64,000 nt of DNA from an uncultured Bacteroidales bacterium (GTDB taxonomy: Bacteria > Bacteroidota > Bacteroidia > Bacteroidales > JAADJA01): the NCBI GenBank assembly GCA_964421215.1, contig CAYQWA010000016.1:16530-80529 (forward strand). The letters are read 5' to 3'. Within the stretch, counting starts at the first letter, position 1; the number at the start of each line of letters is the position of its first letter. Made by a program: the position numbers and the translations under genes. Shown here piece by piece: positions 5,137-17,006 of this stretch. The notes under the pieces are model-generated. The model searched no databases. It was not told the origin of the DNA and worked only from the letters and a program-made list of their open reading frames with translations.

Positions 5137-7503
5137 ATGAGAATGAGAATTAAACATAGGAAACTTAAGCTATTCGGGGTGGTAATGCTTACTGTCCTGG
5201 GGATAGCTTTTTATTTCTCCCTGCCGGATCCTCTATTCTCTGATCCAACATCAACAGTTCTTGAAGACCGGAATGGACTTTTGCTTGGTGCTATGATTGC
5301 AGAAGACGGACAATGGCGATTCCCTTCATCCCAAAACATTCCTGAAAACTATAAAACTGCAGTACTGGAGTTTGAGGACAGGTACTTCTACAAACATCCT
5401 GGTGTAAACTTATTTTCCCTGCTCAGAGCTATTAAACAGAATATCAAAAATGGTGAAATTGTCAGTGGTGGAAGCACCCTTACTATGCAAACCATAAGGT
5501 TGTCAAGAAAAGGAAAGCCACGGACCATTAGAGAAAAATTGATTGAAATAGCAATGGCTTTGCGGCTTGAACTTTCATTGTCGAAAAGTGAGATCTTTGT
5601 GCTATATGCTTCACATGCTCCTTTTGGAGGTAATGTTGTTGGACTCGAGGCTGCTTCATGGAGATATTTTGGTAGACCCGCCCATGACCTGTCCTGGGCT
5701 GAAGCAGCTACTCTTGCCGTATTGCCGAATGCTCCTTCACTAATACATCCCGGAAGAAACCAGGAAAGCTTATTGAAGAAAAGGAATCTGCTTTTGAACA
5801 GGCTGAATGAGAAATCCTTTATTGATGATATTACCCTTGAACTTGCCCTGGAGGAGCCTCTGCCCGGGAAACCATTACCATTGGGACAAAGTGCCCCTCA
5901 TTTGCTTGCCAGGGTTTACCAGGATTCAAGAGGAGAAAAACAAAAAACTACCCTTGATTATTTCCTGCAAAAGAATGTGACGGAAGTGGTACAAAAACAC
6001 CACAATGTATTAAAGCACAATGAAGTGTATAACGCTGCAGCCCTGGTAGTTAAAGTGGGAAGTGGCGAAGTACTTGCATACATTGGAAATACAAATGCGC
6101 ACAGTAAAGCTGATCATGGATGTGATGTGGATATAATTCCTGCCCGCCGTAGTACAGGAAGTATTTTAAAACCCTTGTTATATGCTGCAATGCTGGATGA
6201 GGGACTGATACTCCCTAAAACATTAATCCATGATGTACCGACAAATTATGGCAGTTTTACGCCGATGAATTTTGATCGCAAATATGCAGGTGTTGTTCCG
6301 GCAGACAAAGCCCTGTACAGGTCCTTGAATGTTCCTGCAGTAAAAATGCTTCAAAGCTATGGAGTGCCTGCGTTCCATGATCTGTTAAAAAACATTGGGA
6401 TGACCACCCTGAATAGATCATCTGACCATTATGGGCTATCGCTAATACTGGGAGGAGCCGAAACAACGATGTGGGACCTTGCCTCCATTTATGGCAGTTT
6501 TAGCAGGACTTTAACCAACTTTTATGACAACAGCAGCCAATATGATGAAGCCGACTGGCATCCTCCTTATTATCTTTATGATACTGGTAAGGTTATTGAG
6601 CCTACGGTTAATTTAAAGAAACACTATAACCTGGGTGCATCATCCATTTGGTTCGCATATGAAGCCATGCGACAGGTAAACCGGCCTGAAGAATTGACTG
6701 GATGGGAAGTGTTTTCTTCATCTCAAAAAATTGCCTGGAAGACCGGCACCAGTTTTGGATTTCGTGATGCCTGGGCTGTTGGGACTTCTAAAGAATATGT
6801 TGTCGTTGTGTGGGTTGGAAATGCCGATGGAGAAGGTCGTCCCGGATTAACAGGAGTACAGTGTGCTGCACCCATTTTGTTTGATGTGTTTAATCTTTTG
6901 CCGGAATCAGATTGGTTTGATCCACCCTATGATGAGCTTACTGAAGCGGCGATATGCAAAAATAGCGGACACCGGGCAGGCATGTATTGCACTGAAATTG
7001 ATACCATGTATGTTCCGCAGGCAGGAATAAATGTAGAAAGTTGCCCCTATCATGAACTGGTTCATTTGGATAGTACAGGTACCTACAGAGTAGACGGACA
7101 GTGTTATGATCCGGCTTCAATGATCCATACGGGCTGGTTTGTGTTACCGCCGGTAATGGAATGGTATTACAAACAAAGCAATCCTTACTATAAAAGTCTG
7201 CCTGTGTTTTCACCAGAGTGTATGGCTACACTGTCATCACCTATGGAATTTATTTACCCGAGGGAAAGATCCAGGTTCTTTATTCCTGTTAACTTGGATA
7301 GATCCGAGGAAAGTATAGTATTTGAAATAGCCCATCATGATGAATCTGCCACAATTTACTGGCATATGAATGAGAAATACTTGGGGACAACCAAACGAAA
7401 TCACCAGATCGCCATCCATCCTGAAGCAGGGAAATATCTAATTACTGCAGTTGATAATGGAGGGAATTCCATTTCGAGGCAAATTGAAATCCTTTCCAAT
7501 TAA
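5137..7503 (+). CDS. pbpC: Penicillin-binding protein 1C
   Basis: N-terminal TM, transglycosylase motifs EDRYFYKHPG and GGSTLTMQ, transpeptidase motifs SILK, SLN and KTGT, C-terminal PBP1C domain; adjacent to A2M. Confidence 0.95.
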   Translation: MRMRIKHRKLKLFGVVMLTVLGIAFYFSLPDPLFSDPTSTVLEDRNGLLLGAMIAEDGQWRFPSSQNIPENYKTAVLEFEDRYFYKHPGVNLFSLLRAIKQNIKNGEIVSGGSTLTMQTIRLSRKGKPRTIREKLIEIAMALRLELSLSKSEIFVLYASHAPFGGNVVGLEAASWRYFGRPAHDLSWAEAATLAVLPNAPSLIHPGRNQESLLKKRNLLLNRLNEKSFIDDITLELALEEPLPGKPLPLGQSAPHLLARVYQDSRGEKQKTTLDYFLQKNVTEVVQKHHNVLKHNEVYNAAALVVKVGSGEVLAYIGNTNAHSKADHGCDVDIIPARRSTGSILKPLLYAAMLDEGLILPKTLIHDVPTNYGSFTPMNFDRKYAGVVPADKALYRSLNVPAVKMLQSYGVPAFHDLLKNIGMTTLNRSSDHYGLSLILGGAETTMWDLASIYGSFSRTLTNFYDNSSQYDEADWHPPYYLYDTGKVIEPTVNLKKHYNLGASSIWFAYEAMRQVNRPEELTGWEVFSSSQKIAWKTGTSFGFRDAWAVGTSKEYVVVVWVGNADGEGRPGLTGVQCAAPILFDVFNLLPESDWFDPPYDELTEAAICKNSGHRAGMYCTEIDTMYVPQAGINVESCPYHELVHLDSTGTYRVDGQCYDPASMIHTGWFVLPPVMEWYYKQSNPYYKSLPVFSPECMATLSSPMEFIYPRERSRFFIPVNLDRSEESIVFEIAHHDESATIYWHMNEKYLGTTKRNHQIAIHPEAGKYLITAVDNGGNSISRQIEILSN

Positions 7504-7516
7504 AGCTTCCAGAGCA

Positions 7517-7560
7517 TTACTAACAATTGTTAATAACTCCTGTGGAAAACATGTGTATAT
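7517..7560. promoter_or_regulatory. Cluster of four DnaA-box-like 9-mers
   Basis: TTACTAACA 7517-7525, TGTTAATAA 7528-7536, TGTGGAAAA 7541-7549 and TGTGTATAT 7552-7560, compared with consensus TGTGGATAA/TTATCCACA. Confidence 0.5.
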
Positions 7561-7576
7561 CTACATACTTCTTTTA

Positions 7577-7609
7577 CTTGACAAGCGGACGTGTTTTGAC
7601 CTACTTTTG
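7577..7609 (+). promoter_or_regulatory. Bacteroidota sigma-A promoter for the large ncRNA
   Basis: -7 box TACTTTTG 7602-7609 (TAnnTTTG consensus) and -33-like CTTG 7577-7580, with a 21 nt spacer. Confidence 0.75.
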
Positions 7610-7614
7610 TTTAT

Positions 7615-8146
7615 ACCAGGCGAGAGATAAAAGATTAGCTTGGAACGTCAGGGATCAGGGAACAGGAAGCTCTTCGGAGCGGAAAGGAAAATGATCCGGG
7701 GAAATGAAAGGACGGGCATTAGGTTGTCGGCCGGGAATTAACCCGCCTTGAAATCAAGTGGTTCGAAAATGAAAAACCTGCAAAGGTTTGGAAGAGACGA
7801 TTCAGACATGCGGAGCCAATCCTGAGCAATTGGGAGGAAGCAAAACAAGTCAGCTTGAAAGGGCCAGAGAACAGGTCTATTAAACCGGTAACGGATTAAA
7901 GAACAGTTTTGAACTGAAAAATAGCTACCGTAAGGAAATTATATTTCAGGGAACGTGAAAAGTGATGGAATGGATGAAGAGAATCGGCAACGGTAATCGG
8001 AAACCAATCCGGACTCTGGAAGGAGAAAGCCGCAAGGCGATCACACGAAAGAGCGGTCATAATAACTGTAACCTGGCACTAACCAACCACTACGGTGATG
8101 GCATAGTGAACGGGGGTCAAATCGTCAAGATTTGGCTCCCGTTTTG
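7615..8146 (+). ncRNA. Candidate large structured noncoding RNA (~530 nt), family unassigned
   Basis: Own promoter and terminator. Hairpins capped by UUCG (7673), UACG (8091) and GNRA loops (7780, 7857, 7888, 7930, 7987, 8018, 8032, 8047). Nested long-range helices. No credible ORF. Confidence 0.75.
8109..8146 (+). terminator. Intrinsic terminator-like hairpin ending the large RNA
   Basis: 15 bp stem AACGGGGGTCAAATC/GATTTGGCTCCCGTT (2 G-U pairs, favouring the + strand) followed by a short T run. Confidence 0.65.
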
Positions 8147-8163
8147 GATTTAAATGAGACTAC

Positions 8164-8302
8164 AATTATACAAGCCGCAGGCGCAGTAGAATGGTATAGT
8201 CGAATTTACCCTGAAGTATATTAACTTCAGGGTCCCACCCACATAGGACTCCCACACGTTAATGAATGCCTCAGATACTGTAACCGCACCGTTTGAATAA
8301 TC
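8164..8302 (-). ncRNA. Candidate rod-shaped small RNA, possibly 6S-like
   Basis: On the minus strand the ends pair (AUUAU/AUAAU, CAA/UUG, GCGG/CUGC, CAGUA/UACUG), with an internal bubble and an apical 10 bp hairpin at 8208-8233. G-U asymmetry favours the minus strand. Confidence 0.4.
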
Positions 8303-8400
8303 TTGACTATCAAATTGCCAACAGCTAACAATTAACATTTAACTATTAACTGTTGAAAGTCATAAAGCCTAAAATTCTGGACAATGTTTCAATCAAAGTC

Positions 8401-9066
8401 TTACCCCTGACGACTAACCATTTCCTCAATCCAGATAGGTGCAAATGGAGAGGTGCATCCTTTTGACACAGGATAATCACTGTAGATCCCTAATTTTTCT
8501 CCAATAGCCACAGCACGTTCACGGTATTCAGGGAAATGTATACCGATATAGGCCAGCGCAAAGTTCATGGTCCATTGAACCTCAGGAGCAGCATTTCCCA
8601 TTTCACCCTCTATCCGGGATAACAGAGCCGGCAAATTAAGACCTTCTGAGTTTTTTACTATCCTATCAGCAGTTAAACTCCATCCACAACGGGCTGCCAT
8701 AGGATGATCCGAACTGAGCCATTCCAAACGCATTTTTTCCTTTTCCGGGTGGTGATTAATTACATAAGAGTTCATCCAGTCGGCTACCCTTACAAACTCC
8801 ATTGACCGAACTATTTGATCAAGTTGATCTGTTGATAATAAATTGGGCTTCATTAATAAAATGGCTAAAAATCGAGCATCAACATTCCCGGTTTCCCAAA
8901 GGGATAAAGCCAGGTCATGGTTGGTTTTAATCTTTTTCGCTAATTTTCTTAAATCGCCCAGTTTTACTCCATATTGATTATCTCCGGCACCGGCTTTAGT
9001 ATTTTGTTTTCGTACTTTTTCGCTTCCAAGTGCTTCAAGTTCAATTAGTATTTCTTTAAGAGTCAT
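8401..9066 (-). CDS. DNA alkylation repair protein (AlkD-like HEAT-repeat family)
   Basis: YGVKLGDLRKLAKKIK...LWETGNVDAR and C-terminal KGCTSPFAPIWI typical of the family; promoter TAATTTTG at 9152-9159 (-). Confidence 0.85.
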   Translation of the reverse strand: MTLKEILIELEALGSEKVRKQNTKAGAGDNQYGVKLGDLRKLAKKIKTNHDLALSLWETGNVDARFLAILLMKPNLLSTDQLDQIVRSMEFVRVADWMNSYVINHHPEKEKMRLEWLSSDHPMAARCGWSLTADRIVKNSEGLNLPALLSRIEGEMGNAAPEVQWTMNFALAYIGIHFPEYRERAVAIGEKLGIYSDYPVSKGCTSPFAPIWIEEMVSRQG

Positions 9067-9160: not shown

Positions 9161-9766
9161 CTACTTCCCATCTTCCTTTAAGTAATCATAAAAACCCACC
9201 CCGAACAACTGTGTCATCTCCATAAACCTCAGAATCTTATCCTTGCCGTATTTACTGATCTTTTTGTTTACTTTATCCAGTGATTTAGGTACAAGCAAGT
9301 GGTTGTTGGATTTGGAGTAGAACTTATCCGCATAGCAGATCAACTTTTCTTCCATGGTGATGGGAAGCATATCCTTATGAGGGAGTGGAAATCCTGAGTC
9401 TTTAATGTCTTTTTTTGATAAGCCAACTCCGAGGTGTCGTTCACACACCGGGGCCACTTTTTTCATGCCGTGTTTTTCTAGCATTTCTCTTCCAAGGTAG
9501 GTATGACATATGTACGGTTGTTTACCATGGCAGCCTATTTCAGGAGCATTTGTCTTGATGATACCAATGTCATGAAGCATAGAACCCTTGATGAGAAACT
9601 TTTTATTTATTTCTATTTTGGGATTAAGTTTGGCGATGAGCAGGGCCAGTTCTGTTACTTTAACAACGTGTGTATAATAAAAGTAAAATGCTTTTTCGTC
9701 TTTTGGGTAGTATTTAGTTATGATACGGTCTACTTTTTCAGGAACTTTAAAACTAGGCTTTATCAT
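9161..9766 (-). CDS. HD (HDIG) domain phosphohydrolase
   Basis: H...LHDIG...CH...ERH...ICYADKF motifs. Start placed at ATG 9766, overlapping the CDF stop; the ORF track starts at 9781. Confidence 0.85.
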   Translation of the reverse strand: MIKPSFKVPEKVDRIITKYYPKDEKAFYFYYTHVVKVTELALLIAKLNPKIEINKKFLIKGSMLHDIGIIKTNAPEIGCHGKQPYICHTYLGREMLEKHGMKKVAPVCERHLGVGLSKKDIKDSGFPLPHKDMLPITMEEKLICYADKFYSKSNNHLLVPKSLDKVNKKISKYGKDKILRFMEMTQLFGVGFYDYLKEDGK

Positions 9767-10622
9767 CTCTGCAAGGTTCAATGTGAATGTTTATGTCAAG
9801 ATTTTTAACAGTTTCTTTGAGTTCTTGTTCAATTTTATCACATAAGTCATGCGAATCGCGGACGGTCATATTATCAGGAACTTCAAAGTGAAAGTCCACA
9901 TATTTATGCGGTCCTGATTTTCGTGTTCTTAACTGATGGTACTGAAAACACCTATCAATGTATTTGTTTAATACATCCCGAATTTTTTCTATGTCTTCTT
10001 CAGGTAAACTCACATCCAGCAGTGGGGTGTATGCATTTTTAATAAGTTTCCAGGCTTCAACTACGATAAAAAGAGCAACTGCAATAGCAATTATGGGATC
10101 AAGGAAATGCATGCCTGTTATCCAGATAAGGAATATTCCTACAGCAACTCCTGCTGATGTATACACATCAGTCCTCAAGTGGAGAGCATCGGCTTCTAAA
10201 GCAATGGAGTCGGTTTCTCTGGCAACTTTGTAAAGCTTATGACTTACCCAGAAATTAATGATCGCCGATAATGCCATAACGATCATACCAAGCCAGAGGT
10301 ATGTAATTTCTTCCTTGTGAAGAAACTTTTGAACCGACTCGAATATTATCCATGCAGCAGCAACAAGGATGAGTATTCCTTCAATTACCCCGGATACATT
10401 TTCGAATTTTCCATGTCCGTAAGGGTGATCCTCATCAGGAGGCTGGCTGGAGATCTTTACTGAGAAAAATGCAATAATAGCAGCAATCAGGTCCATCATA
10501 GAATGAATAGCCTCTGAAAGGATACTTACCGAACCGCTTAAAAAGCCTGCTATTAGCTTAATAACGATCAGGAAGACGTTGGAGAAAATTGAAAGCCTAG
10601 CTGTTCTTACTTTTTTATTCAA
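9753..10622 (-). CDS. Cation diffusion facilitator (FieF-like) transporter
   Basis: SEAIHSMMD, HPYGHGKFE and ADALHLRTD metal-site motifs, 6 TM, C-terminal ZT dimer domain; promoter TATTTTTG at 10644-10651 (-). Confidence 0.92.
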   Translation of the reverse strand: MNKKVRTARLSIFSNVFLIVIKLIAGFLSGSVSILSEAIHSMMDLIAAIIAFFSVKISSQPPDEDHPYGHGKFENVSGVIEGILILVAAAWIIFESVQKFLHKEEITYLWLGMIVMALSAIINFWVSHKLYKVARETDSIALEADALHLRTDVYTSAGVAVGIFLIWITGMHFLDPIIAIAVALFIVVEAWKLIKNAYTPLLDVSLPEEDIEKIRDVLNKYIDRCFQYHQLRTRKSGPHKYVDFHFEVPDNMTVRDSHDLCDKIEQELKETVKNLDINIHIEPCRDDKA

Positions 10623-10978: not shown

Positions 10979-11052
<74 letters not shown>

Positions 11053-11136: not shown

Positions 11137-14100
11137 TTACCTCACCAAAACCTTCTTCGTAACAATACCCTTTTCACTCACAACCCGTACAACATAATTC
11201 CCACCCTCTGTTAAAACAAACCTGTTAAATTGATCATTTGTGGTAGTAGAGGTAACCTGCTGTCCATGCATGTTGTAAATAATAATGTTACCCTTTATGT
11301 TTTCCAACATTTCAACATAAATTGCTTTATCAAAGGAATAGATATAGGCAAAGTCAATAAAACTATTGTGGCTTCCAAACTCATCATCCAGGTAAATGAG
11401 GAACCTCAAAGGTTCATCTTCAGGACCTGCAGTATAACTGTAAGAAACTCCAGCTTCAACTTTCGTAATAGCCCCTGTTTTTAGGTCTTCAAGGTAGATC
11501 TTTTCAAATGGCTCAAACCCAATCATATTCTCAACTGAAAGTGTGTAAATTTCATACGATCCGACTTCCAGTCCAAGCGGGATTATTTTATAGCTATCAT
11601 CATTTGCGAAAGCATTTACAGACAATTCTACATTATCTTTAGATAAGGAGTAAAACTGAGGAGCTACTTCATCGCCCCTGAATTTCAATGCATCATAACG
11701 CTTATCGTAATCAGCGGTTGAGTTTTCATCGAACACAATTAGTAACTCATCAGCTAAATTATTTCCTGCCACTTTTAATTTAAGTATTGGATCAGAAGTT
11801 ATTTTGCTTTCTTTTAAAACATCTTTCGAATGGTGTAACCTGGCACCGTCATCAACAGCAATAAAACCGGTAGCTTCAGAACAATGGATGAAAAATCCCT
11901 GTTGGGAAGGAATGATACTATCCACATCGTTGGTCCCAGTAGAATTGTCTTTGACATATACCCCATAATTGCCAACTGTTCCATTCCAGATGTAAATAGT
12001 AGGATCAATATTTCCTACGGTTCTGATCCAACCGCTGCCGTCATCGATGTTCCAGTTGACAGCAGAAGGATACGGATTACCTGTGAAACAAAATCCCCGG
12101 TTATTATGAGTAGCTCCTGAAGTATTGGTAGCATTAAAGGATTTAGTTCCTGTATTCAAATCGCCGGAAAAAGTGACTGTTCCAATATCATTTGTCCAAA
12201 CGGCAAAACCTTCCATATCTGTACTCATTACATAATCAGGATCAGTGATGTATGACCATTCTCCTGATGGTTCATCCCACTGCATCATGTACATTCCAAG
12301 GAATATTCCGGCTATTGGGTCATCCACAGGGGCTGAAACATAATGCCATTGATCTTCTGTAAGGTAACGCTCAAGATTTGCCGTTCCAGTTCCAGCTATT
12401 AAACCCAAATCTAGGAAAGAACCGGTACCCGTTTCATCAGAATGAATTGTTAAACTGCCATTGTTCTGGAAAATTCCATGAACAGTCAACATACCATTTA
12501 CACCAATTTCCACGGTAGCTTCATTTTCTACGATTAAATTCAAACTTTCAGCGGAACCGTTTATGACAGGGGATTCACCTTTGGCACCTCCAACATCAGG
12601 TATAACAGCACTCATGGATTGATCAGGTTTGCTGATGGTCCAGTTACCGTTATTACCCCAGTTACTGTCAATGGTTCCGAGCCATTCAGTGCAGGGTGCA
12701 TCTTCATTTGATACCGGTAAAACAGTATTGAAAAAATAATCCACAGAGCTGGTATGTGCTGGATTACCACCTGCATTTCCGGCATATGTGCCAACTGCTG
12801 ATACGTTTATGGAATGAGTGAATGATGCTCCGGGATCCCAATTGATACCATCAGTGGAATAGGATTGTGTCCATTGGTCTCCGCTACGGTTTACTCGCAT
12901 GTACAAAGGAGCAATACCTGTGGATCCAATGGATTGATTGAAAACAATATCATCGGTAAGAGGAAATGTTGACGGACCAGGGACGAAAGTAGCTGCCAAT
13001 ACGTTTGTATTGCTTGCACTGCTGTAAAATTCAAATCGAAGGAAATTTGAGTCGTCTTGTTTTATCAATATCCCTTGCTCCTGGAATGCACCACTAACAG
13101 AAGACTCAAACTTGATTTCTACCTCGAAATTGCCATTTCCGGTTCCCTGCAATATGTGGGGTGCCATTATTCCGTCGGTCCATAGTTCATGTGATGAACC
13201 TGCCGGAACGCTGATATTGATCCAGGCATCATCAGTACATGAGCCTGTCATAGTATAACCTCCACCACCAAGAGGATCAATGAAGGACCAAATGGTCTCA
13301 TTCAGTACCGGATCATTGAAATCATCAGAAACGAATTCGGTTGCAGGATCGAAGTCCATTACGTGGATCACAAAATTCTGGGTGTCGGCTGAGGGAATGG
13401 TATTGATTGCCTCCACTGATACAGCAAAATCGCCGGGGGCAGCAGGTGTCCATTCAATAAGACCTGAATTGCTATTTATTGTCATTCCTCCCGGTGCTGT
13501 CAGCAATGAATAGGTCGGTGCCGGATCACCATCAGCTTCAACGTCATAGCTGTATAAATGTCCCACAAGGGCATCGGTCAGTGGTATAGACGTGATTACT
13601 GCTATATTGGGATTGATTGAATCCTCGGGAATTACAGGATTCTCAATATTAAAAAAGTAATCGATGGATCCGGTGTGAGCCGGGCTTGATGCTCCAACAG
13701 CATTACCAGCATATGGACCGACTCCTGTTACTGTGATATCAAAGTTGAAGATGGCTGACTGAGACCAGGTTGAACCATCCAGGGAGTGGGTCATGGTCCA
13801 TTGCTCGTTCTGGCGTTTTACCCTCATGTATAAAGGCGCTATACCAGTACTGCCAATAACTGTATTGGCGTGTGTAGTATGGTCACCGGGTGTAAAACTG
13901 GCTACATAAACCTTTGTTTCGCTAGCATTGCAATAAAATTCAAAACGCATAAAAGTGTCATCATCCTGGCGCACCAGAATACCCTGTTCCTGGTATTGAA
14001 GGTTCAGTGTTGATTCAAATTTTGCTTCCACCTCAAAGTTGGCATTGTTACAGCTTTGCCTCACATGTGGAACTTTCAGACCACTTGTCCAGAGCTGGTG

Positions 14101-15555
14101 TTCGGTTCCGCCCGGTACTAAAAAGTTCAGCCAGGCATCTGCAGTGTTACTTCCAACGAGTTCGTAGTCACAGTCTCCTACGGGATCAACAAATGTCCAC
14201 AAACTGGCATTCAACTGAGGCAGATGAAAATCGTCAGAAACAATGTCCGATATCTCGGTTATAAATGTCAGATCACCGGTTATTGCTTCATCACCTTCAG
14301 AGTTTTCAGAGGTGATCTGGTAATGATACTCTGTATTTGGTGTCAGGCCAGTTAGTTCAATACTATGAGAAGTTATCAGAGTGGCATCGTAAAGCGTGTC
14401 CAACTCATATCCTGTTGTAAGGCCATAGGCCACCTGACTACTTGCAGGAACATTAGTATTCCATGTGATGGTTGCACCATCGGCTCCCTCACTGATTTGT
14501 GCATTTACATTGGTAACAGAGATGGGTATACCGGTAATGGAAAGATTGCCATAGGTAACATCGCCATGATGGCTGATGAGCATTAGGCTACCGTTTTGAG
14601 GGTCGCTTAATGATTCCTGTGCCGTAATATCCCATCCAATTGGTTCCGACTCACTTTGTTTCCAGACCTTAAAGCTATATTGCCCACCAACACCAGGGTT
14701 GGTTTCTACTCGTGCCCTGAACATATAGGTAGTATCGAAGGTCAAGGATCGAGTTTGAGTAGCAAGAATATCCCCATCGTTTCCATATATTTCCAACCTG
14801 TTGCCTCTGTACCAGCAGATGGCACCAAGTGGGAGCCAGCCACATTTCGGTTGGGAACAGCTTACCGGATCATCCGTATGCCCCATCCAACGCAGCAATA
14901 CGCCAACACCACCTCCGCCACTCATGCTGTGAATGGTCACGGGTACCAGGATCTCATAGTCAAACCAGGTGGTATCTCCAATAGCCACCAGCCGGTCATA
15001 ACCAGTGACAACAGTGTGAATACCTTCAGAAGTTACCTCCCAGTTTCCATCAACAGCCTGAGAAACCTCATTGACAGCAACTTTGGACTGCCAATCGATG
15101 TCATAAGGAAGGGGCCATACATTGGTGTTTGAATAATTTACCGTTACAGTATGTTCTGTCCTGTTATCCAGGTTGTCGGTGGCAATGATCATCACTGTAT
15201 TGGCTCCATTTATCAGGTCCTGGGTAGCCAGATCGATATTAAAATCCCCTGAGGATTGTAGCCTCCTGCCGTCAGAACCTATTGATAGCATAACCTTCGG
15301 ACCTCCGTTCAGTGTATAATATAGCGAGTCAACTCCATCAGCATCTGATACGTTCCCCAGCAGGTTTACCCAACGTTGTGGAACACCATGCTGCCCGAAG
15401 TTCTGAGTGTCTCCATACCACATAATGACATCAGGTCCGTCAAGCAATGGAGCTGCTAAAGGAACACTTTTAACTAGTTCCGTAAATAGAAATAAAAATG
15501 CAATCAGCATAATCAATTTAATGACTGCCTTGCGAATATTGCTACATTTTTTCAT
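11137..15555 (-). CDS. Large T9SS-secreted multidomain protein (FN3-like, two DUF1349/ConA-like repeats, Ig-like, type A CTD)
   Basis: Signal peptide; duplicated SDDF...W.F.DP.G...SxDYFFN modules; C-terminal IYNMHGQQV...GNYVVRV...TKKVLVR sorting domain; promoter TATATTTG at 15713-15720 (-). Confidence 0.85.
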   Translation of the reverse strand: MKKCSNIRKAVIKLIMLIAFLFLFTELVKSVPLAAPLLDGPDVIMWYGDTQNFGQHGVPQRWVNLLGNVSDADGVDSLYYTLNGGPKVMLSIGSDGRRLQSSGDFNIDLATQDLINGANTVMIIATDNLDNRTEHTVTVNYSNTNVWPLPYDIDWQSKVAVNEVSQAVDGNWEVTSEGIHTVVTGYDRLVAIGDTTWFDYEILVPVTIHSMSGGGGVGVLLRWMGHTDDPVSCSQPKCGWLPLGAICWYRGNRLEIYGNDGDILATQTRSLTFDTTYMFRARVETNPGVGGQYSFKVWKQSESEPIGWDITAQESLSDPQNGSLMLISHHGDVTYGNLSITGIPISVTNVNAQISEGADGATITWNTNVPASSQVAYGLTTGYELDTLYDATLITSHSIELTGLTPNTEYHYQITSENSEGDEAITGDLTFITEISDIVSDDFHLPQLNASLWTFVDPVGDCDYELVGSNTADAWLNFLVPGGTEHQLWTSGLKVPHVRQSCNNANFEVEAKFESTLNLQYQEQGILVRQDDDTFMRFEFYCNASETKVYVASFTPGDHTTHANTVIGSTGIAPLYMRVKRQNEQWTMTHSLDGSTWSQSAIFNFDITVTGVGPYAGNAVGASSPAHTGSIDYFFNIENPVIPEDSINPNIAVITSIPLTDALVGHLYSYDVEADGDPAPTYSLLTAPGGMTINSNSGLIEWTPAAPGDFAVSVEAINTIPSADTQNFVIHVMDFDPATEFVSDDFNDPVLNETIWSFIDPLGGGGYTMTGSCTDDAWINISVPAGSSHELWTDGIMAPHILQGTGNGNFEVEIKFESSVSGAFQEQGILIKQDDSNFLRFEFYSSASNTNVLAATFVPGPSTFPLTDDIVFNQSIGSTGIAPLYMRVNRSGDQWTQSYSTDGINWDPGASFTHSINVSAVGTYAGNAGGNPAHTSSVDYFFNTVLPVSNEDAPCTEWLGTIDSNWGNNGNWTISKPDQSMSAVIPDVGGAKGESPVINGSAESLNLIVENEATVEIGVNGMLTVHGIFQNNGSLTIHSDETGTGSFLDLGLIAGTGTANLERYLTEDQWHYVSAPVDDPIAGIFLGMYMMQWDEPSGEWSYITDPDYVMSTDMEGFAVWTNDIGTVTFSGDLNTGTKSFNATNTSGATHNNRGFCFTGNPYPSAVNWNIDDGSGWIRTVGNIDPTIYIWNGTVGNYGVYVKDNSTGTNDVDSIIPSQQGFFIHCSEATGFIAVDDGARLHHSKDVLKESKITSDPILKLKVAGNNLADELLIVFDENSTADYDKRYDALKFRGDEVAPQFYSLSKDNVELSVNAFANDDSYKIIPLGLEVGSYEIYTLSVENMIGFEPFEKIYLEDLKTGAITKVEAGVSYSYTAGPEDEPLRFLIYLDDEFGSHNSFIDFAYIYSFDKAIYVEMLENIKGNIIIYNMHGQQVTSTTTNDQFNRFVLTEGGNYVVRVVSEKGIVTKKVLVR

Positions 15556-15932
15556 GACTTGTTAATTTGAAAATTTATAAAGTAAAAGCGTGAAAAAAGT
15601 GGGTTTATATTAAATATTGCAATGAAATCTCCGAACTGAAATAATCCACCTATCTCTTTTCTATAAGTCAAAAAAATTACACTAGCGTATTTAGTTTGAA
15701 GGGATTGAGTAACAAATATACTAATTAAATTTCAGGAATCCAATATTAGATAGAAAGGGACTAAGGTATTAGAGAGGTCAGGATAACTTTCAATCCTTAG
15801 CCTAACAACCTTAATTCCCATGAAAAATAGGTATTATAGATATGATATCATCATTAATAAAAGTTGCCACATTAAACATTTTGTATTTTTACATATAAAA
15901 TAGGTGAGTTGTGATATCCTGATATATTCCCG

Positions 15933-17006
15933 ATGAAAAAGACAAATTTTTACAAGGTTCTGTTTTTAGTCTGTTTTTGGGTAGTGTGTAGTTTATTTAT
16001 AGTGTTGTACGATTCTGCCCTATTAGGATTTGAATCTGAATTTGGAGGTAGTACTTACAGCTTTTTGCTAACATTAATAACTGTTGTACTAACAACCATT
16101 ATAGGAGCTTCTATTCTGGGAACCATTGATGTTTTATATTTAAGCAAAATTGTACGAAAGAAAACTTTTGGTATTTCTATTCTTATCAGGACAGCGATAT
16201 ATATGGGATTTATATTGTTTTTTGTTACTCTAGCTATCCTCTATATTATTCATTTGGAACTGAATCTTCCATTATTTAGTCGGGATGTATTGATTGAGTT
16301 GAAGGAATACCTTCTGAGTTCTCGATTTCTGATGAATTTTATTTATTGGGGAGGTGCCTGTATTGCAGCACTATTTGTTCTTCAGGTGAGTGAAAAATTC
16401 GGGCAGGGAATTTTAAAGAATTTTTTATTGGGAAAATATCACAAACCAAAGGAAGAAGAGAGAATTTTCCTGTTTATGGATCTAAAATCTTCAACAACAC
16501 ATGCCGAAAGATTAGGTCATATAAAGTACAGTCAACTTATCCAGGATTGTTATTATGAACTGACGGATGTTGTTTTGAAATATCATGCTGTTATTTACCA
16601 GTATGTAGGTGATGAAGTGGTATTGACCTGGAAAGTGAAGAAAGAATTTGAATACAAGAATTGTATCCAATTTTTGTTTGAAATTGACAAAATTCTTTTA
16701 TCCCGGTCAGATTACTATATTGACAAATATGGATTTGTTCCAGAGTTTAAGGCGGGAATTGATATAGGATTTGCTACTGTTGTTGAAGTAGGTCAGATCA
16801 AAAAAGAACTTGCTTACCACGGTGATGTATTGAATACTGCTTCACGGATACAAAGCAAGTGCAACGATTATTACGCTCGTTTACTCATTTCCCATAAGCT
16901 TTATAAAAATTTGGATAGTCAAATCAAGTCATCCTTTGAATTGGTGGATGATTTGGTGCTCAAAGGTAAAAATCAAGCTATAAAGATATACAGGTATAAA
17001 AGTTAG
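15933..17006 (+). CDS. Membrane-bound class III adenylate/guanylate cyclase domain protein
   Basis: 4 N-terminal TM segments; FLFMDLKSST, YVGDE, GDVLNTASRIQ and LKGK motifs. Confidence 0.9.
   Translation: MKKTNFYKVLFLVCFWVVCSLFIVLYDSALLGFESEFGGSTYSFLLTLITVVLTTIIGASILGTIDVLYLSKIVRKKTFGISILIRTAIYMGFILFFVTLAILYIIHLELNLPLFSRDVLIELKEYLLSSRFLMNFIYWGGACIAALFVLQVSEKFGQGILKNFLLGKYHKPKEEERIFLFMDLKSSTTHAERLGHIKYSQLIQDCYYELTDVVLKYHAVIYQYVGDEVVLTWKVKKEFEYKNCIQFLFEIDKILLSRSDYYIDKYGFVPEFKAGIDIGFATVVEVGQIKKELAYHGDVLNTASRIQSKCNDYYARLLISHKLYKNLDSQIKSSFELVDDLVLKGKNQAIKIYRYKS

Follow-up and report, generated by a model that had tools for sequence, protein, structure and literature searches.

Positions 7615 to about 8147 (plus strand) of a 64,000-nucleotide (nt) stretch of DNA from an uncultured Bacteroidales bacterium (GenBank assembly GCA_964421215.1, contig CAYQWA010000016.1), here called the window, probably form an independent gene for an abundant, stable, structured noncoding RNA (ncRNA) that has its own promoter and terminator and belongs to a family absent from Rfam 15 and from our searches of work in print. 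The source genome of the window (G000) carries the locus in single copy, on contig C16. It lies downstream of a penicillin-binding protein 1C gene (5137 to 7503, plus strand); the genes that follow are convergent and encode a DNA-alkylation-repair protein, an HD/HDIG protein and a cation-efflux protein.

Gene boundaries and transcript

7577 to 7581, plus strand: −33 promoter element TTGAC, with TGAC invariant in 19/19 genus homologues
7602 to 7609, plus strand: −7 promoter element TAnnTTTG (TACTTTTG), with T, A and TTTG invariant in 19/19
7615 to 8147, plus strand: ncRNA transcript, with its 5′ end at A7615 and its 3′ end put in the U-tract past the terminator
8109 to 8143, plus strand: 15-bp terminator hairpin with invariant GGG/CCC, then UUUUGG, from comparative pairing

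Homologues were compared in a genus alignment of 19 sequences, including the window's copy, and in a family-wide core alignment (A6, full length) of 54 sequences with both RNA ends located. In the former, the promoter boxes were invariant and the spacer variable. Across the family, a TAnnTTT(G/A) box ended 3 to 5 nt ahead of the first base of the RNA in 54/54 members, and the flanking sequences held a CTTGAC or CTTGC-like sequence upstream of most. A −7 box of the TAnnTTTG type is the promoter consensus of Bacteroidota. The accessible part of PMC7366714 describes sigma-ABfr. The terminator was 97.9% paired over its 15 pairs in the genus (9 with changes on both sides) and 91.5% paired over 15 pairs family-wide (13 with changes on both sides). 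In a 32-sequence alignment of the 3′ domain, its stem had a similar shape and a partly conserved sequence across families, which is unusual for a plain terminator. A generic terminator and sigma-70 scan returned nothing relevant; Bacteroidota promoters lie outside its coverage, hence the lack of a promoter call, and it missed the 8109 to 8143 hairpin because the T-run reads TTTTGG.

The stretch 3′ of the promoter is purine rich (GC skew up to +0.30; AT skew up to +0.36), and the folding z-score was −4.8 for the plus strand (0/100 shuffles as good) versus −1.3 for the minus strand. No conserved open reading frame (ORF) was found among the three on the plus strand (31 to 63 amino acids [aa]), which lose their start, gain stops or shift in length in most homologues. 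The 63-aa ORF (7962 to 8153) kept its start codon in 0/18 homologues and had 1 to 6 in-frame stops in 17/18, and the two smaller ones were broken in most.

Searching an index of runs gave two DNA runs, possibly the source sample, together with 14 rows labelled as RNA, and contigs from four RNA-library runs (X3, X4, X6 and X7; three studies) were mapped on positions 7400 to 8400. All depth lay inside 7604 to 8147, with bins 7604 to 8113 covered and flanking bins 7400 to 7603 and 8148 to 8400 at zero depth in all four runs. In X3, a single 497-nt contig spanned 7614 to 8091 with 0 differences (depth, 261); contigs covered 7628 to 8102 in X4 (depth, 829 to 16,312; the missing cover over 8103 to 8146 carries no meaning) and 7628 to 8118 in X6. 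X6 and X7, from other studies, held close relatives (0 to 12 differing letters per piece). In one contig each of X3 and X4, 16 to 19 loose adapter-like letters directly abutted 7614, read here as the tail of an Illumina adapter; the adapter's last letter may be T7614, and the 5′ end of the RNA was therefore placed at A7615, 6 nt past the −7 box. None of the contigs had a joint within the molecule. Zero depth on both sides, the upstream gene's end included, speaks against carried-over DNA. The RNA is a discrete transcript that is abundant in environmental RNA libraries.

A depth step was also seen in X4, where unitigs over 7628 to 7773 had a depth of 12,500 to 16,300 and the contig over 7744 to 8102 a depth of 829. 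A stable 5′ fragment, a conserved stretch common to several strains or an assembly effect could each account for the step, and contigs do not discriminate among them.

The preliminary description of this DNA, made from its letters alone, had placed a promoter at 7577 to 7609 and a 15-bp terminator hairpin at 8109 to 8143 around a region without a credible ORF, and it had read the loops as fixing a plus-strand orientation. The promoter has both boxes, invariant throughout the genus; the terminator is present and covaries; the reading frames are broken in most homologues; and the folding z-scores favour the same strand. Its predicted transcript of about 530 nt starting near 7615 is borne out by contigs that begin at 7614/7615 and are confined to the interval, with flanks at zero, evidence that does not extend to the strand or the 3′ end.

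Conserved core, variable centre and distribution

7616 to 7620, plus strand: 5′ strand of the closing helix P1 (CCAGG), pairing with 8072 to 8076
7622 to 7633, plus strand: conserved 5′ junction strand GAGNGAUAAAAG, with positions invariant in 54/54
7638 to 7643, plus strand: GCUUGG, possible alternative partner of 7616 to 7621, in the genus only
7652 to 8054, plus strand: variable central domain, branched, mostly GNRA-capped hairpins (RNAalifold, 19 genus sequences)
8058 to 8071, plus strand: conserved 3′ junction strand CAUAAUAACNGUAA (54- and 32-sequence alignments)
8072 to 8076, plus strand: 3′ strand of P1 (CCUGG), pairing with 7616 to 7620
8077 to 8108, plus strand: conserved 3′ hairpin, internally looped and tipped by C(UACG)G (9 pairs, 54 sequences)
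Central helices 1, plus strand, from covariation: 7652-7656/7693-7697; 7670-7672/7677-7679; 7715-7718/7725-7728; 7745-7749/7860-7864; 7754-7759/7853-7858
Central helices 2, plus strand, from covariation: 7805-7806/7850-7851; 7810-7811/7845-7846; 7821-7823/7833-7835; 7884-7886/7893-7895
Central helices 3, plus strand, from covariation: 7916-7918/7945-7947; 7921-7924/7939-7942; 7927-7929/7934-7936; 7967-7969/8008-8010
Central helices 4, plus strand, from covariation: 7972-7973/8004-8005; 7983-7986/7991-7994; 8013-8016/8051-8054; 8030-8031/8036-8037

P1 joins the five bases past the first A to the five bases past the conserved AAUAACNGUAR. All five pairs were standard in 54/54 sequences and 4/5 changed on both sides, with 11 strand combinations (including CCAGG/CCUGG, CCAAG/CUUGG, UCAAG/CUUGA, UCAGG/CCUGA, CCAGA/UCUGG, UCAGA/UCUGA, UCAAA/UUUGA and CCGAG/CUCGG). 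The junction strands beside it are the family's most conserved letters (54 sequences): RNA positions A9, G10, A13, T14, A15, A16 and A17 were invariant in 54/54 on the 5′ side; on the 3′ side, A450, T455 and A456 were invariant and several neighbours at least 90% conserved in the same alignment, and A10, T11, A12, A13, G16, T17 and A18 were invariant among the 32 sequences. The 5′ junction reads GAUCAAAAG, GCGAAAAAGG and CGAUACGG in three loci outside the 54-sequence alignment. Past P1, the two helices of the 3′ hairpin were 93.8% and 86.3% paired, with 9/9 pairs changing on both sides (54 sequences), and CTACGG was nearly invariant (32 sequences). Taken as P1, 3′ hairpin and terminator (29 pairs), the core was 92.2% paired versus 76.6% after shuffling (0/500 shuffles reached it); 26/29 pairs changed on both sides, and slid controls reached at most 49%.

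Within the genus, a competing pairing was found. Six pairs of 7616-7621/7638-7643 were compatible in nearly all sequences of a separate pair screen of 24 genus sequences, two of them changing on both sides; this pairing excludes P1 and is not conserved beyond close relatives. Combined with 7647-7652/8072-8077, it is the minimum free energy fold and the RNAalifold choice, and its pairs are compatible in the 24 sequences. Covariation between 7619 and 8073 is perfect (7 G-C and 12 A-U among 19 sequences; 9 and 15 among 24), versus no more than a G-C/G-U alternation of 8073 with G7651, and P1 is the only version kept family-wide.

For the central domain, RNAalifold on the genus alignment gave 95 pairs, 54 of them compensatory. 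A curated 92-pair structure, with P1 in place of two conflicting local helices, was 93.1% paired versus 81.7% for column shuffles (0/500 reached it); 57 pairs changed on both sides and slid controls reached at most 46%, figures biased in favour of the structure, as it was derived from the same 19-sequence alignment on which it was scored. An all-against-all helix screen on the 24 sequences (at least 85% standard pairs and at least 3 stacked pairs) yielded many G-U-driven false stacks and served as a filter only.

Seven of the nine hairpins listed in the preliminary description are kept in relatives. Those at 7669 (helix 3), 7885 (helix 12), 7928 (helix 14), 7983 (helix 16), 8029 (helix 18) and 8088 (helix 20) are in the covarying 19-sequence structure, and that at 7774 is, by eye, a GNRA-capped hairpin in every genus sequence, with differing sequence or an insertion. 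The other two gave way to longer-range pairing: GCTT-GAAA-GGGC (7853) to 7745-7749/7860-7864 and 7754-7759/7853-7858, and CTCT-GGAA-GGAG (8014) to 8013-8016/8051-8054. Among its six long-range helices, 7616/8072 is P1 (paired in 54/54), 7652/7692 holds, and 8077/8104 survives in three of five pairs; 7633/7994, 7646/7711 and 7722/7796 failed the helix screen on 24 sequences. Hairpins and long-range helices together, five of its proposals are wrong. Covariation in collected homologues, which it had proposed as a check, is strong in the genus, 3′-domain and family-wide core alignments.

Using BLAST, homologues were found in 18/24 other genomes of the same genus (65 to 75% identity) and in 0/16 genomes from other families; by nhmmer, all genus copies were full length except L015, at a contig end. 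A pattern scan of GTDB species genomes gave 25 loci, nearly all in uncultured Bacteroidales/Bacteroidetes metagenome-assembled genomes, with two titled Chlorobiota and one 593-nt contig in an Aliidiomarina bin. A genus covariance model of the 5′ domain (R1) matched 16/151 genomes of the order, and similarity in its distant matches was limited to ~35 nt at the start and ~100 nt at the end. A model of the 3′ domain (R2; 32 sequences, 23 pairs, 20 compensatory) matched 35/151 genomes, or 34/148 genera of the order, four genomes holding two copies (G057, G100, G139 and G150). In a phylum-wide sample, R2 matched 3/151 genomes, namely, G000, one clear match outside the order but within the class, and one weak match. 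By these sequence searches, the family appears essentially confined to the GTDB order of these uncultured Bacteroidales.

The plus-strand R2 matches listed number 61, and 54 of them entered the length, P1, conservation and core counts. Left out were L018 (which nearly duplicates L022), L017 (1 nt deleted within the motif), L105 and L112 (weak matches at 29 to 37 bits, with no 5′ motif found) and L073, L083 and L109 (variant junctions); P1 was later examined in these last three and pairs in all of them. A further 16 minus-strand or overlapping weak R2 matches reflect the palindromic terminator and were not counted, and G066 carries the 5′ part only, at a contig end. Members range from 231 to 636 nt (54 members), and the central domain from ~100 to ~500 nt.

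Several observations touch on copy number and carriers. One genome (G021) has two nearly identical copies on two contigs (L018 and L022), each beside an HDIG gene, by duplication or from two strains in the bin. The family also occurs in genomes of 1 to 5 contigs (G129, G081 and G305). A phage or integration site was considered and rejected. IMG/VR gave two matches only (L127:9530-9866 and L128:1-300), both 3′ halves of family members at a contig end, joined there to RNA-virus polyprotein genes at the 3′ end of these; the ORFs match RNA-dependent RNA polymerase (RdRP), RNA helicase and CRPV capsid in L127 and, weakly, RdRP in L128. Since these ORFs are RNA-virus polyproteins, the contigs were read as chimeric metatranscriptome products and the integration reading was dropped; they hint that such RNAs are plentiful in RNA libraries.

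Known RNA families, neighbouring genes and a candidate partner protein

Rfam 15 (4227 models, including OLE, ROOL, GOLLD, HEARO, raiA and Bacteroides/Bacteroidales motifs) was searched over the whole window at gathering scores and gave no match over the RNA. At E ≤ 10, positions 7400 to 8450 gave four chance-level matches (best E, 0.42); just two of them, both weak (E, 4.7 and 7.7), reach the RNA, at its terminator end, and nothing was matched over the RNA in the loci of 34 relatives (14 + 20). RNase P RNA, transfer-messenger RNA (tmRNA) and signal recognition particle (SRP) RNA were rejected, as their models match elsewhere in the genome and not at the RNA locus: RF00010 at G000:C16:13495-13943 (234.6 bits), RF00023 at G000:C41:6316-6712 (149.3 bits) and RF00169 at G000:C31:10-108 (52.1 bits). 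The RNase P RNA gene is on the same contig, ~2.6 kb before the window start and ~10 kb upstream of the RNA. The sole Rfam match at gathering scores in the whole window is a tRNA gene (10979 to 11052; 64.8 bits).

The 6S model RF00013 had no match in the region or anywhere in G000; it also misses the control Bacteroides thetaiotaomicron, which has a validated 6S RNA according to the accessible part of PMC7366714, and its silence in G000 therefore proves little. A 6S rod of about 150 to 200 nt was not seen in this family, whose members are multi-branched and 231 to 636 nt long, with 21 helices in the window copy and two hairpins 3′ of P1. Elsewhere in the genome, RF01685 (6S-Flavo) gave a subthreshold match (35.4 bits; cutoff, 85) to a long irregular rod at G000:C18:23859-23996 (L113:1501-1638), which may be the true 6S RNA of G000.

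Neither Rfam 15 nor full-text searches of the literature gave a description of the family, and outside those searches lie supplementary files that may list unnamed candidates. Bacteroidota RNAs in the accessible parts of three 2026 bioRxiv preprints (a PhoH2-associated RNA, UG27 arrays and a uS2/uS9-linked element) were compared, and none of them is this RNA.

These results bear on how the preliminary description had classed the RNA. It had seen no signatures of RNase P, tmRNA or SRP RNA, in agreement with the positions of those model matches, and the Rfam search that it proposed has been run, with no match for the RNA or for the 34 relatives' loci. Its "possibly undescribed" stands as far as Rfam 15 and the full-text searches go. 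The size class of OLE, ROOL and GOLLD suits the window copy and some members, and not the shorter ones. "Stand-alone" is right as to promoter and terminator; the RNA is no lone oddity and is an expanded member of a Bacteroidales-wide family. Its central call, a stand-alone, plus-strand structured ncRNA of ~530 nt that carries its own promoter and terminator and fits no recognised family, is supported by the contig span, the covariation and the null result with Rfam 15.

No neighbour gene was shared across the 30 family loci examined; the largest neighbour clusters were RelA/SpoT-type genes (5/30) and convergent DnaG genes (4/30). The RelA/SpoT-type (p)ppGpp synthetase/hydrolase genes lie 50 to 670 nt off, on the same strand and on either side, in different families (L059, L084, L087, L096 and L098). 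The HD-domain neighbour was rejected as a partner: this HDIG gene (9161 to 9781), of HDIG type and not a small alarmone hydrolase, flanks the RNA genus-wide, yet it was found in 1/14 distant loci (L055) and was therefore taken as inherited synteny.

In three families, a small protein without a Pfam or NCBIfam match is encoded 83 to 180 nt ahead of the RNA, on its strand; in a fourth, the protein gene adjoins the RNA:

L084:717-1178, plus strand: small two-barrel protein (~150 to 175 aa), adjoining the RNA
L082:2011-2511, minus strand: the same, adjoining the RNA
L087:613-1122, plus strand: the same, adjoining the RNA
L109:535-987, minus strand: the same, adjoining the RNA
G000:C3:171694-172530: tandem form (~300 aa), source genome copy, other contig

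The small protein family has an invariant motif, KINC.G..LEP.HP. The tandem form is within 3.3 kb of the RNA in two more genomes and elsewhere in others. An AlphaFold2 model (13 sequences; predicted local distance difference test score, 90.2) has two beta1-3/helix/beta4-5 barrels with an OB-like strand order, and an Atlas search gave nothing beyond unnamed clusters from Bacteroidota and, at 0.88, an S1 lead. The predicted two-OB-barrel protein is a weakly supported candidate for the RNA's partner, a lead and not a finding.

Interpretation and comparison with known systems

The RNA has a promoter and terminator of its own, is made as a discrete abundant transcript, folds with deep covariation and combines a small invariant core with an expandable periphery; together with the variable gene context and the patchy, lineage-restricted distribution, this points to a trans-acting structured RNA of a new family. 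In the family's architecture, the 5′ end of every member pairs with a 3′ segment in P1. Two conserved A-rich strands, 5′ GAGNGAUAAAAG and 3′ AAUAACNGUAA, flank this helix; 3′ of P1 come a hairpin tipped by UACG and then a terminator of conserved sequence, and a lineage-specific domain of ~100 to 500 nt made of GNRA-capped hairpins lies between the P1 strands. The RNA would act in trans, with the invariant core as its putative functional site. We tentatively favour this core as a platform for a protein partner, in a ribonucleoprotein (RNP), and the variable GNRA hairpins may brace the fold by tertiary contacts, by analogy with RNase P RNA and group I introns. It is conceivable, at similarly modest odds, that the window copy is the founding example of a new Bacteroidales-confined class of large RNA, very plentiful in marine communities, in which the junction would be a catalytic or a ligand/protein site, working with the two-OB-barrel protein as a new RNP or ribozyme.

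Several points weigh against this reading. The contigs reveal neither strand, 3′ end nor relative levels, and the best two runs (X3 and X4) are from the study that probably supplied the DNA. P1 is just 5 bp long, the middle of the 54-sequence alignment is MAFFT-based and poor, and the genus-specific alternative pairing may mean that the RNA switches folds or that the core model is incomplete. As for the partner, homologues occurred in 16/35 RNA-positive versus 21/116 RNA-negative genomes, where the Fisher p of 0.0016 overstates the link because related genomes are not independent and kinship inflates it. With the query used, the protein is missing from 19/35 RNA-positive genomes and present in 21 RNA-negative ones, the G000 copy is on a different contig than the RNA, and fold matches in PDB are weak (ModG, Teb1 OB domains and eS4; template modelling score, 0.2 to 0.3).

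A large ribozyme, with the junction around P1 as the putative active site and the GNRA hairpins as peripheral stabilisers, seems unlikely. A conserved core with a variable periphery is the pattern of RNase P RNA and group I/II introns, and the conserved unpaired core, the lineage-specific expansions from 231 to 636 nt, the dense GNRA loops and the high abundance are consistent with it. However, no candidate substrate, conserved neighbour or processing signature was seen, contigs run through the RNA without joints, the core is small (~30 conserved unpaired nucleotides) and three members vary even in the GAUAAAAG strand.

Size, an ornate branched fold, many GNRA tetraloops, abundance and the lack of an obligate protein neighbour would also suit a putative RNA-only homo-oligomer, with GNRA loops and A-rich strands as contacts between copies, as reported for ROOL, GOLLD and OLE in the accessible part of PMC12286853. 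We consider this quite unlikely, given no similarity to those RNAs at E ≤ 10, a nearly three-fold length spread that is awkward for a fixed cage geometry and carriage outside phages (the two IMG/VR matches are both chimeric RNA-virus contigs).

There is only a slim chance of a base-pairing regulator or sponge, in which the strands GAUAAAAG and AUAAUAAC might pair with A/U-rich translation starts or small RNAs, or titrate an RRM-type protein. Its invariant A/U-rich strands are unpaired, the architecture is trans-encoded and many loops are GGA or GAA rich, but the conserved strands flank a helix and resemble a structured junction, and a variable structured body of 230 to 640 nt would be superfluous for seed pairing.

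Slimmer still is the case for a putative RNA-polymerase-binding regulator like 6S RNA or mycobacterial Ms1. 6S RNA is near-universal, whereas this family was found in 34/148 sampled genera only, and instead of a rod with a central bubble the RNA has a multi-branched fold of 231 to 636 nt with two extra 3′ hairpins; a weak 6S-Flavo rod also lies elsewhere in G000. What recommends it is the very high abundance, the paired ends with large conserved unpaired strands beside the closing helix, the position near relA/spoT in 5/30 loci and the absence of an RF00013 hit in G000 (a model equally silent on the B. thetaiotaomicron control). A cis-regulatory leader or riboswitch, or a small-protein mRNA, is scarcely credible: the RNA ends in a terminator and a relA/spoT-type gene follows on the same strand within 50 to 113 nt in 2/30 loci, but the next gene in the window is convergent, neighbours vary over the 30 loci, RNA-library depth is zero past 8148 and the ORFs are not conserved.

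This putatively trans-acting, probably new structured RNA matters in several ways. There are few large ornate RNAs of unknown function in bacteria, and OLE, ROOL, GOLLD, HEARO and raiA each opened new biology. This one is ready for experiments, with a mapped 5′ end, very high environmental expression and over 55 diverse homologues whose core helix is proven; short natural forms of 231 to 330 nt, L104 and L081 among them, suit structure determination, and a candidate partner protein is at hand. If G129, G081 and G305 are cultured isolates, genetics may be possible. The family also fills an annotation gap, an intergenic stretch of ~0.5 kb that is currently unlabelled in about a quarter of the sampled Bacteroidales genera.

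Like 6S RNA and Ms1, the Bacteroidales RNA is abundant and apparently trans-acting, with paired ends and large conserved unpaired strands beside the closing helix; unlike them, it is branched rather than a rod, longer, more variable and provided with extra 3′ hairpins, with no Rfam match. With RNase P RNA of type A it shares ends joined by P1, a small invariant junction core, lineage-specific GNRA-looped peripheral helices, an abundant stable transcript and a gene that stands alone, whereas its distribution is patchy (34/148 genera) rather than universal, and the RF00010 match of G000 lies elsewhere. ROOL and GOLLD are often found in phages or prophages. The Bacteroidales RNA resembles them in size class, ornate multi-hairpin architecture, discovery by comparative genomics and a function that is not known, and it differs in being without a match to them at E ≤ 10, chromosomal, mostly single copy and in no genuine phage contig. 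OLE RNA, of Bacillota, belongs to another phylum and has a fixed length and conserved partner genes adjoining, in contrast to lengths of 231 to 636 nt, no constant neighbour and no Rfam match here. The likeness lies in the large size (~600 nt for OLE), an intricate covarying fold, conserved unpaired nucleotides, abundance and a biochemical function not yet known. According to the accessible part of PMC9723947, OLE works as an RNP with dedicated proteins, and that mode is also the one tentatively favoured for the Bacteroidales RNA.

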